In this document: piece by piece, positions 3,739-6,461 of the stretch
How the letters are laid out: each line of letters starts with the position of its first letter
Numbering within the stretch: the first letter of the stretch is position 1
Origin: a virus
Lineage: Duplodnaviria > Heunggongvirae > Uroviricota > Caudoviricetes
IMG/VR virus record: IMGVR_UViG_2541047953_000001
Location: 1 to 11,099 of that record
Length of the DNA stretch: 11,099 nt
Direction: 5' to 3' (one strand)
The notes under the pieces: model-generated
Seen by the model: only the letters and a program-made list of their open reading frames with translations
Told to the model about the DNA's origin: nothing
Databases searched by the model: none
Made by a program: the position numbers and the translations under genes

Positions 3739-4196
3739 ACAGAGTAACCGCGATTATCTCCGCTCTGGTTATCTGCATCATCGTCTGCCTGTCATGGGCT
3801 GTTAATCATTACCGTGATAACGCCATTACCTACAAAGCCCAGCGCGACAAAAATGTCAGAGAACTGAAGCTGGCGAACGCGGCAATTACTGACATGCAGA
3901 TGCGTCAGCGTGATGTTGCTGCGCTCGATGCAAAATACACGAAGGAGTTAGCTGATGCGAAAGCTGAAAATGATGCTCTGCGTGATGATGTTGCCGCTGG
4001 TCGTCGTCGGTTGCACATCAAAGCAGTCTGTCAGTCAGTGCGTGAAGCCACCACCGCCTCCGGCGTGGATAATGCAGCCTCCCCCCGACTGGCAGACACC
4101 GCTGAACGGGATTATTTCACCCTCAGAGAGAGGCTGATCACTATGCAAAAACAACTGGAAGGAACCCAGAAGTATATTAATGAGCAGTGCAGATAG
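3735..4196 (+). CDS. rzpD: Inner-membrane spanin Rz (i-spanin), lambda type, 153 aa
   Basis: ATG at 3735 overlaps the endolysin TGA (ATGA); the track ORF begins at an upstream GTG at 3723. N-terminal transmembrane helix ([16 protein letters not shown]) followed by a charged coiled-coil-like periplasmic domain. Nearly identical to lambda Rz as I recall it. Confidence 0.85.
3955..4137 (+). CDS. rzoD: Outer-membrane lipoprotein spanin Rz1 (o-spanin), 60 aa, embedded in the +1 frame of Rz
   Basis: Signal peptide with lipobox LVVVGC, then a proline-rich mature region ([15 protein letters not shown]). It lies wholly inside the Rz gene in a different frame, the classic Rz/Rz1 architecture. Confidence 0.8.
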
Positions 4197-4227
4197 AGTT
4201 GCCCATATCGATGGGCAACTCATGCAA

Positions 4228-4521
4228 TTATTGTGAGCAATACACACGCGCTTCCAGCGGAGTATAAATGCCTAAAGTAATAAAACCGAGCAATCCATTT
4301 ACGAATGTTTGCTGGGTTTCTGTTTTAACAACATTTTCTGCGCCGCCACAAATTTTGGCTGCATCGACAGTTTTCTTCTGCCCAATTCCAGAAACGAAGA
4401 AATGATGAGTGATGGTTTCCTTTGGTGCTACTGCTGCCGGTTTGTTTTGAACAGTAAACGTCTGTTGAGCACATCCTGTAATAAGCAGGGCCAGCGCAGT
4501 AGCGAGTAGCATTTTTTTCAT
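4228..4521 (-). CDS. borD: Bor lipoprotein (Iss/Bor serum-resistance family), 97 aa
   Basis: Signal peptide and lipobox (LLITGC). It is on the opposite strand immediately after Rz, the lambda bor position. Sequence matches my recollection of Bor. Confidence 0.85.
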   Translation of the reverse strand: MKKMLLATALALLITGCAQQTFTVQNKPAAVAPKETITHHFFVSGIGQKKTVDAAKICGGAENVVKTETQQTFVNGLLGFITLGIYTPLEARVYCSQ

Positions 4522-4811
4522 GGTGTTATTCCCGATGCTTTTTGAAGTTCGCAGAATCGTATGTGTAGAAAATTAAACAAACCCTAAACAATGAGTTGAA
4601 ATTTCATATTGTTAATATTTATTAATGTATGTCAGGTGCGATGAATCGTCATTGTATTCCCGGATTAACTATGTCCACAGCCCTGACGGGGAACTTCTCT
4701 GCGGGAGTGTCCGGGAATAATTAAAAACGATGCACACAGGGTTTAGCGCGTACACGTATTGCATTATGCCAACGCCCCGGTGCTGACACGGAAGAAACCG
4801 GACGTTATGAT

Positions 4812-5222
4812 TTAGCGTGGAAAGATTTGTGTAGTGTTCTGAATGCTCTCAGTAAATAGTAATGAATTATCAAAGGTATAGTAATATCTTTTATGTTCAT
4901 GGATATTTGTAACCCATCGGAAAACTCCTGCTTTAGCAAGATTTTCCCTGTATTGCTGAAATGTGATTTCTCTTGATTTCAACCTATCATAGGACGTTTC
5001 TATAAGATGCGTGTTTCTTGAGAATTTAACATTTACAACCTTTTTAAGTCCTTTTATTAACACAGTGTTATCGTTTTCTAACACGATGTGAATATTATCT
5101 GTGGCTAGATAGTAAATATAATGTGAGACGTTGTGACGTTTTAGTTCAGAATAAAACAATTCACAGTTTAAATCTTTTCGCACTTGATCGAATATTTCTT
5201 TAAAAATGGCAACCTGAGCCAT
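4812..5222 (-). CDS. ybcV: DUF1398-type prophage moron protein (YbcV-like), 136 aa from the Met with a strong RBS
   Basis: The minus-strand ORF is open to 5345 (177 aa) but its first codon is GTG with no RBS. The ATG at 5222-5220 is preceded by GGAAGG at about 8 nt spacing and gives 136 aa, matching my recollection of the YbcV length. The gene is visibly AT-rich relative to its flanks. Confidence 0.6.
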
Positions 5223-5878: not shown

Positions 5879-6073
5879 TCATTCTTCATCACTTTTAATT
5901 GATGTATATGCTCTCTTTTCTGACGTTAGTCTCCGACGGCAGGCTTCAATGACCCAGGCTGAGAAATTCCCGGACCCTTTTTGCTCAAGAGCGATGTTAA
6001 TTTGTTCAATCATTTGGTTAGGAAAGCGGATGTTGCGGGTTGTTGTTCTGCGGGTTCTGTTCTTCGTTGACAT
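5879..6073 (-). CDS. ylcI: Small basic protein (YlcI-like, DUF3950), 64 aa, possible ribbon-helix-helix DNA binder
   Basis: Minus-strand ORF ending just before cos. The N-terminus is Arg/Thr-rich and is followed by RNIRFPNQMIEQINIALEQ, which has the strand-helix pattern of Arc/MetJ/CopG-type RHH proteins. The surrounding DNA matches my recollection of the lambda right end. Confidence 0.6.
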   Translation of the reverse strand: MSTKNRTRRTTTRNIRFPNQMIEQINIALEQKGSGNFSAWVIEACRRRLTSEKRAYTSIKSDEE

Positions 6074-6244
6074 GAGGTTGCCCCGTATTCAGTGTCGCTG
6101 ATTTGTATTGTCTGAAGTTGTTTTTACGTTAAGTTGATGCAGATCAATTAATACGATACCTGCGTCATAATTGATTATTTGACGTGGTTTGATGGCCTCC
6201 ACGCACGTTGTGATATGTAGATGATAATCATTATCACTTTACGG

Positions 6245-6461
6245 GTCCTTTCCGGTGATCCGACAGGTTACGGGGCGGCGACCTCGCGGGTTTTCGCTAT
6301 TTATGAAAATTTTCCGGTTTAAGGCGTTTCCGTTCTTCTTCGTCGTAACTTAATGTTTTTATTTAAAATACCCCCTAAAAAGAAAGGAAACGACAGGTGC
6401 TGAAAACGAACTTTTGGGCCTTTGTCGTTTCCTTTCTCTGTTTTTGGCCGTGGAATGAACA
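6245..6461. other. Lambda-type cos packaging site (cosQ region, cosN with 12-nt cohesive end at 6273-6284, cosB with R sites) immediately upstream of nu1
   Basis: GATCCGACAGGTTACG|GGGCGGCGACCT|CGCGGGTTTTCGCTATTTATGAAAATTTTCCGGTTTAAGGCGTTTCCGTTCTTCTTCG... matches the joined right-end/left-end sequence of lambda as I recall it. There are a few substitutions in the cosB region, for example CGTAACTT versus lambda CATAACTT. Confidence 0.8.

Follow-up and report, generated by a model that had tools for sequence, protein, structure and literature searches.

An apparent RNA motif, widespread in lambda-like phages, between the lysis cassette and the terminase genes

Does the inverted repeat that lies between bor and ybcV in a lambdoid prophage belong to a functional element and, if so, does that element work as DNA or as RNA? 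The repeat was noticed in an 11,099-nt stretch of viral DNA (IMG/VR record IMGVR_UViG_2541047953_000001, the whole of which is here called the window). The window is a defective DLP12-like prophage in which a porin gene is followed by holin, lysozyme and Rz, then by bor, then by ybcV, ybcW and ylcI, then by Nu1, and finally by tail-fibre fragments and a hydrolase gene. As the initial annotation had it, the arms TATTCCCGGA (4655-4664) and TCCGGGAATA (4710-4719) are perfect reverse complements (100% complementary) with 45 nt between them, and they are situated in the intergenic region bounded by two minus-strand ORFs, bor (4228-4521) and the DUF1398 gene ybcV (ending at 4812). Taken by itself, the perfect 10-bp repeat is unremarkable, because the window contains six inverted repeats of 10 nt or longer whose arms are separated by 60 nt at most. 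What raises it above chance is that the 96-nt stretch around it folds more stably than shuffled sequences on both strands (z -3.6 and -3.9), that its pairing continues outward (ATCGT/ACGAT) and that compensatory changes are found in related phages. Folding of both strands had been proposed at the outset, as had a comparison with lambda, which revealed the two to be essentially identical. Positions 4400-5000 of the window match phage lambda (J02459, 46631-47230) at 99.7% identity over 600 nt and the DLP12 prophage of K-12 derivatives at 98.3% identity; the lambda counterpart of the repeat lies at approximately 46886-46950. The suggestion that the repeat is a remnant of the equivalent lambda region can be set aside, as lambda itself carries the element.

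Three other features of the window were recorded in passing. Between 6462 and 9431 the Nu1 ORF is lengthened to 216 aa, and tail-fibre repeat and tail-fibre assembly fragments come right after it in place of a large terminase; this defective junction resembles the DLP12 deletion in K-12, and in E. coli M8, the closest genome at the element, the terminase is intact. A perfect 11-bp hairpin at 4196-4221 (GAGTTGCCCAT-N4-ATGGGCAACTC) falls exactly between the convergent genes Rz (end at 4196) and bor (end at 4228), and is probably a shared or bidirectional terminator or stabiliser. An inverted repeat at 6381-6437, with 26-nt arms (81% complementary) and a 5-nt loop, shortly precedes the Nu1/nohD start (6462) and, judged by this position, may represent the cos-proximal region.

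The repeat is one helix (H2, Table 1) of a conserved block of about 105 nt (46868-46972 in lambda), which covariance model R1 recovers in the window with a score of 114.5 bits (E 8e-31). In prophages that lack bor, homology to the window begins at about 4637, while in 933W-type Shiga-toxin phages, from which ybcV is absent, it stops at about 4744. At least eight unrelated types of sequence flank the block on its left. The element occurs equally without bor and without ybcV, so its initial description as an element downstream of minus-strand ybcV does not hold. The block was found in 285 phage records, nearly all of them named as Escherichia, Shigella or Stx phages (a single 'Campylobacter phage' record is 99.7% identical to lambda), and in more than 120 IMG/VR contigs. 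Among complete E. coli genomes, 4470 of 5426 (approximately 82%) contain it, at 7646 places and with up to six copies per genome. No annotated feature lies under the block among the E. coli matches listed or in the records sampled. In GTDB species representatives, true matches are confined by organism name to Escherichia, the remaining matches being due to chance; five further true copies lie on contigs labelled with unrelated taxa, which we read as contamination. Perfect E. coli-type copies were seen on four short contigs (L139, L143, L136 and L148) labelled as Pseudomonas yangonensis, Thiomicrorhabdus heinhorstiae, a Nanosynbacter MAG and a soil proteobacterial MAG; these copies probably reflect contamination of those assemblies by E. 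coli or lambda. A covariance model built from the family detected no divergent homologues in P22 and HK97, and the element is therefore accessory rather than universal among lambdoid phages.

Some copies lie outside phages. Plasmids hold 686 of the 7646 E. coli copies, and ColV-type plasmids carry a partly eroded copy beside iss. On the E. coli plasmid NZ_CP104524.1 (L182, 2500-2617), the copy adjoins iss, a homologue of bor, in surroundings made up of Rz/Rz1 pseudogenes and an IS2-family IS3-like element. One extra base and several broken pairs in this copy suggest that constraint is relaxed outside a phage.

The immediate neighbours of the element vary, but its place and direction are constant. 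When 168 instances were oriented by the element, Rz was upstream on the same strand in 146 of 146, with holin and endolysin likewise upstream on that strand, and the terminase small subunit was downstream on the same strand in 94 of 94, represented by three families (Nu1, 933W-type and JLK-type). Between Rz and the block there are 5-1741 nt, and between the block and the terminase gene 189-2336 nt. The comparisons show the element to be an independent module that lambda-like and Shiga-toxin phages and prophages carry in Escherichia and Shigella. It invariably follows the lysis cassette (holin, endolysin, Rz) and precedes the terminase genes, irrespective of the accessory genes that adjoin it. 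One IMG/VR phage contig (L018) has two copies approximately 950 nt apart (5065-5156 and 6015-6106), which bracket a plus-strand ORF. On one side of this arrangement is Rz, with a 103-aa ORF after it, and on the other is Nu1; it looks as though recombination between copies had brought in a cassette.

A nested four-helix model was tested on an alignment (A4) of 51 distinct copies. The overall shape is that of an elongated hairpin, with nested helices of 7, 11, 5 and 3 bp and internal loops between them. Across the 26 pairs, 98.2% of 1317 cells are standard pairs, a count in which cells are not independent events; the copies are closely related. Changes on both sides occurred in 8 of the 26 pairs, against 1.9 +/- 1.0 in shuffles (0 of 500 reached 8), and pairing fell to 30-66% when partners were slid by 1-3 columns. 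As judged from the alignment, most of the covariation support is borne by H1 and H2. The seven pairs of H1 are 98.9% paired and two of them show compensatory double changes (U-A to C-G and C-G to U-A); in the window variant A4644 is left unpaired opposite G4732. Helix H2 has 11 pairs (97.7% paired), five with compensatory double changes: pair 9 of the repeat switches from G-C to C-G, and the others go from C-G to U-A or A-U, or from U-A to C-G. The divergent copies L156, L167 and L178 contain several compensatory pairs in H1 and H2. The weakest helix, below H1 and H2 in support, is H3. Its five pairs are 97.6% paired; a single compensatory change was seen (C-G to U-A), and opposite an invariant G the copies have C and U in a 50:50 ratio. 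The window variant has a mismatch in H3, A4677 opposite C4702. At the tip, the H4 loop reads GACG, GACA, UGAC, UUGC, UAUG or GAGA, and a 9-nt deletion in POCJ13-type phages cleanly removes the hairpin. Short internal complementary runs had been pointed out within the spacer; one of them, CCC-TGAC-GGG, proved to be this conserved apical hairpin with its variable loop, while the other, CTCTGCGGGAG, is restricted to the lambda-type variant. The proposal of a long structured RNA element is upheld by the nested, covariation-supported helices.

Table 1. Coordinates of the conserved block, its helices and its flanking features in the window.
Feature	Position	Strand	Basis or remark
Whole conserved block (TGCG...ATCGTC...GGG)	4637..4741	+	Homology with unrelated lambdoid phages starts and stops here
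H1, 5' strand, GAATCGT	4643..4649	+	Pairs with 4727-4733
H2, 5' strand, TATTCCCGGA plus U4665	4655..4665	+	Covariation
H3, 5' strand, CACAG (CGYAG in most relatives)	4676..4680	+	Pairs with 4699-4703
H4, apical hairpin CCC-UGAC-GGG	4681..4690 (4681-4683/4688-4690)	+	Constant stem, variable loop
H3, 3' strand, CTGCG, nearly invariant	4699..4703	+	Alignment
H2, 3' strand, G4709 plus TCCGGGAATA	4709..4719	+	Covariation
A-rich 3' side of H2/H1 internal loop, ATTAAAA (AUCAAAA in most relatives)	4720..4726	+	Nearly invariant A4 columns 89-95
H1, 3' strand, ACGATGC	4727..4733	+	Covariation
Conserved single-stranded 3' tail, ACACAGGG (ACACCGGG in most relatives)	4734..4741	+	Alignment; T-rich run next in relatives
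Left neighbours of block: Rz, bor (-), Rha (+), 50-aa ORF (+)			
Right neighbours of block: ybcV (-), ylcI (-), TonB fragment (+), Nu1 (+), 933W-type TerS (+)			

Other pairings were considered. An inner 4-bp hairpin, ACUC/GAGU, is compatible with 72 of 78 variants, with wobble changes as its sole support, and is treated as an alternative to H3 because the two were judged sterically incompatible as a pseudoknot. An outer helix (P0), in which the 5' flank GCGCGGTA would pair with 3' TACCGCG, was rejected: it shows no covariation, and column 10 is C, G or T with the same partner. Also rejected was an alternative hairpin, GUGUGC/GCACAC, which is broken by G-to-A changes that fit H1. Conservation is unevenly spread along the element. 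The 3' half (TCTGCG.GAGTGTGCGGGRATAATCAAAAACGATRCACACCGGG) is nearly invariant, as are the A-rich internal loop and the tail, although some invariant columns are so by construction because the retrieval patterns were anchored on conserved stretches. Most of the change is taken by the 5' strand, as C to U. Conservation of the 3' half and loops exceeds a purely structural need, which hints at a sequence-specific partner.

The changes within paired columns also indicate which strand folds. G·U accounts for 138 cells, spread over 13 pair positions, and C·A for 6, and this large excess of G·U over C·A places the folded molecule on the plus strand, in the sense of the late transcript. Pairing under the model is 98.3% when read as plus-strand RNA compared with 85.9% for the minus strand, and the minimum free energy is lower for the plus strand in 42 of 55 variants. 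The plus strand is the sense of the phage late (pR') operon and is opposite to ybcV and bor, contrary to the tie with the ybcV strand in the initial annotation. A conserved plus-strand RNA structure is very probable. Conservation in related prophages and mapped transcript ends had both been put forward as signs of function; the repeat is indeed conserved in related prophages, and the K-12 Term-seq listing contains no 3' end inside the element. That dataset (supplement of Adams et al. 2021) does contain a bicyclomycin-sensitive, Rho-dependent plus-strand 3' end at NC_000913.3 579345, antisense to ybcV. It follows from this downstream end that plus-strand transcription crosses the element, even in a cryptic prophage. 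In the lambda RIL-seq study and the searched part of its supplement, no RNA from the element locus is reported.

Known RNA classes were screened. Against Rfam 15, the whole window gave no match at gathering thresholds, and the only hit within 4400-5000 was a chance snoRNA match (E = 4.5); neither the AgvB nor the AsxR model matched the window, and no tRNA or tmRNA was found. The known prophage and lambda sRNAs (AgvB, AsxR, EcOnc03, Pas sRNAs, StxS, lambda 6S, LPR2, PreS, IpeX and 24B_1) were rejected as candidates, as all lie at other loci. They too are ncRNAs of lambdoid phages, but are sited by pR'/upstream of holin, in the early left operon, by nmpC, or near lom. The core sites of integron attC elements have the consensus RYYYAAC / GTTRRRY; inspection of A4 found none at the block ends, there is no integron integrase among the neighbours, and an attC-like site was likewise rejected. 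Similarities to nut boxB, RfaH ops and hammerhead cores, compared by eye, were dismissed, since the bases concerned are not maintained from variant to variant. The searchable literature yielded no account of the element, which appears to be a widespread and so far undescribed RNA motif of lambda-like phages.

What might such an RNA do? Our tentative reading, held at rather less than even confidence, is that it is a processing or stability signal in late mRNA. The element would act in cis within the long Q-antiterminated late transcript, right after the lysis cassette. It could be a double-stranded RNase III target of the T7 type, with two stems around an internal loop, or a barrier against 3' exonucleases; in both cases the part of the mRNA that carries the lysis genes would be set apart from what lies downstream. 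The RNase III sites of phage T7 have a two-stem layout, cut polycistronic mRNAs and leave protective 3' hairpins. In the element, the 7 bp of H1 are followed by a 5 x 7 nt internal loop and then by the 11 bp of H2, with AU-rich pairs beside the loop. Held against the layout of RNase III sites (approximately two turns of dsRNA, often as two stems around an internal loop), H1/H2 has the appropriate geometry, and by this geometry the element is a candidate RNase III site.

Several other explanations were weighed against this one. That the element works as DNA, whether as a pair of protein half-sites, a cruciform, or a homology patch for lambdoid recombination and module swapping, is rather improbable. 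Unrelated flanks do meet exactly at the block borders, two copies enclose a cassette in L018, recombination between lambda and DLP12 takes place readily across the region, and compensatory double changes would also fit a DNA hairpin. However, neither a double-stranded site nor a symmetrical cruciform would be expected to show the 138:6 bias or a strand-specific stability, four nested helices with variable loops exceed the needs of a half-site pair, and a recombination joint is a consequence of conservation, not its reason. The protein-binding site pair suggested at first leaves the wobble bias and the extra nested helices unexplained, and is retained here within this rival. A transcription stop or insulator, which would end minus-strand ybcV/ylcI transcripts before bor or block non-antiterminated rightward transcription into the packaging genes, is more doubtful still. 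Its attraction lies in the position of the element, which in the window comes 93 nt after the stop codon of ybcV, in a minus-strand T-run that precedes the element together with a weak terminator-like match (4755-4730), and in the GGGTTTT(T) that follows the block on the plus strand of relatives. Yet no U-tract comes right after the helix on either strand (plus strand AUUAAAAAC / AUUAAAAACG, minus strand CAAUGACG) and the interior is too long (H2 encloses 43 nt, with 45 nt between the arms), which agrees with the original remark that this is not a simple intrinsic terminator; a terminator scan of both strands does not list the element. Furthermore, many copies have no minus-strand gene on their right, the wobble pattern favours the plus strand, and in K-12, where Term-seq places no 3' end here, plus-strand transcripts continue to the Rho-dependent end at least about 230 nt downstream. 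It is very unlikely that the conserved feature is part of the bor promoter. Overlapping the left arm on the minus strand is a sigma-70 promoter, TGGACA-N15-TACAAT (approximately 4677-4651), which is annotated in the GenBank records of HK629 and HK630 (L004, 1752-1778) and whose hexamers are present in the window sequence. Against this, the hexamers occur only in lambda-type copies, relatives having CGGTCT and TACGGC there, and the element is present in many phages without bor. The site is also unlisted in the promoter scan, a silence that is not independent evidence because its 15-nt spacer falls outside the 16-18 nt range of the scan. A better candidate, much closer to bor, is the PhoP-box-like direct repeat at 4574-4590. 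This repeat, TGTTTAGGGTTTGTTTA, is on the minus strand approximately 55-70 nt upstream of the bor start codon and fits TGTTTA-N5-TGTTTA, a pattern with one match in the window compared with 0.10 expected by chance; borD of K-12 is PhoP-activated. A small protein or leader peptide is the least credible of all and scarcely to be entertained. Two 31-aa plus-strand ORFs (4625-4720/4629-4724) do exist in the window, as do a 10-codon ORF over H1/H2 in relatives and an open frame, LRECAGIIKNDAHR, over the 3' half, and the variable columns 73, 85, 91 and 107 of A4 in that half would be silent in one frame. But the frames are not conserved, being broken by one-base indels and by a different frame in the lambda type; the 10-codon ORF reads GTG-CGA-TGA in the window; and the open frame has a stop 4-10 codons upstream and, in most variants, lacks an ATG, GTG or TTG start. 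Third positions show no overall excess of variable columns (4/9), and wobble pairing or loop positions explain the same columns.

A further rival keeps the RNA and changes its role. The element could be a sequence-specific ncRNA, released by processing of the late transcript, that serves as a decoy, sponge or regulator by binding to a factor of the host or the phage; this we consider unlikely, though less so than any of the foregoing rivals. The near-invariance of the 3' half and the drift of the 5' strand from C to U speak for it, as do the movement of the module independently of its neighbours, in the manner of accessory 'moron' genes, and the two copies that flank an inserted gene in L018. 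On the other hand, there is no promoter within or just upstream of the block and no terminator; the promoter scan covered the window's own flank, where no plus-strand promoter lies upstream of the block, and the upstream flanks of other copies are unrelated. Nor is the RNA among the Hfq-bound lambda sRNAs reported by RIL-seq, in so far as that study and the searched part of its supplement go. Within the same bounds, none of the marks of an Hfq-dependent sRNA (a discrete transcript, a terminator hairpin with U-tail, recovery with Hfq) was seen. One version of this rival is that the element mimics the type I-E CRISPR repeat: a stem CCC(C)GC/GCGGG(G) followed by AUAA, with a structured insert in place of the tetraloop, would bind Cas6e or seed dead-end assemblies of Cascade once released from the late transcript. 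The H2 arms do resemble GAGTTCCCCGCGCCAGCGGGGATAAACCG, which annotated CRISPR arrays confirm as the I-E repeat of E. coli. The 3' arm GCGGGGATAATC agrees with GCGGGGATAAAC at 11/12 bases in 24 of 66 distinct variants and at 10/12 in 31 more, GCGGGGAUAAUC is the variant of the element tied to this lead, and some variants have the full CCCCGC/GCGGGG stem. A scan of 3.15 Mb of strand encountered the 10-mer GCGGGGATAA at only 5 places outside the element, about the frequency expected by chance, which makes the I-E match nominally unusual. However, the comparison is post hoc, agreement falls to 8/12 bases in the window/lambda variant, the tetraloop of the repeat is replaced by approximately 45 nt, no acr or aca genes lie nearby (the neighbours being Rz, bor, Rha, ybcV, ylcI and terminase), and late expression is poor timing for an anti-CRISPR. 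Lambda is, moreover, efficiently blocked by engineered E. coli I-E systems. We regard the mimic as a very long shot.

Lambda is among the most closely studied genomes, yet the block is without annotation in the records sampled and has no Rfam family; it would be suited as an Rfam seed. It also provides a landmark at which accessory genes (bor/iss, ybcV, Rha and others) swap in and out. Should the element process or stabilise late mRNA, it would help to explain how the dosage and timing of lysis and structural proteins are obtained from one 25-kb transcript. Were its partner instead a factor of the host, phages would be widely equipped with a regulatory RNA, and if the I-E mimic were true, an RNA anti-CRISPR would be present in most lambdoid and Shiga-toxin phages of E. 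coli.

Among known systems, the solitary CRISPR-repeat units known as Racr (RNA anti-CRISPRs; Camara-Wilpert et al. 2023, PMC10651486, where E. coli lambdoid phages are not mentioned) resemble the element in that it is a phage-borne hairpin whose arms recall the host repeat, its 3' arm and the start of the handle agreeing at 11/12 in many variants. Unlike Racr, it has a loop insert of approximately 45 nt and a late-operon site, with no promoter of its own found and no acr/aca neighbours. On the preferred reading, as a putative processing or stability signal, the relevant comparison is with the RNase III hairpins of phage mRNAs (T7 R1.1-type, the lambda N-leader and sib), which are likewise placed between gene blocks of a long transcript. 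The coaxial 7- and 11-bp stems around an internal loop, with an AU-rich region beside that loop, are reminiscent of T7 R1.1-type sites, and in the 5' strand of the element, as in RNase III hairpins, sequence conservation is secondary to pairing. The element differs from such hairpins in its further inner helices, in its strongly conserved loop and 3' tail sequences, and in its absence from some lambdoid phages (P22, HK97). The late-operon stem-loops or 'putative terminators' annotated in HK97, P22 and lambda offer another parallel, being also hairpins in a Q-antiterminated late operon; they are read through in lytic growth and are thought to stabilise the upstream mRNA. Those stem-loops, however, come directly after a gene and consist of a short GC hairpin and a T-run, whereas the element is a multi-helix structure of 105 nt with no adjoining T-run, maintained as a sequence family across unrelated flanks.
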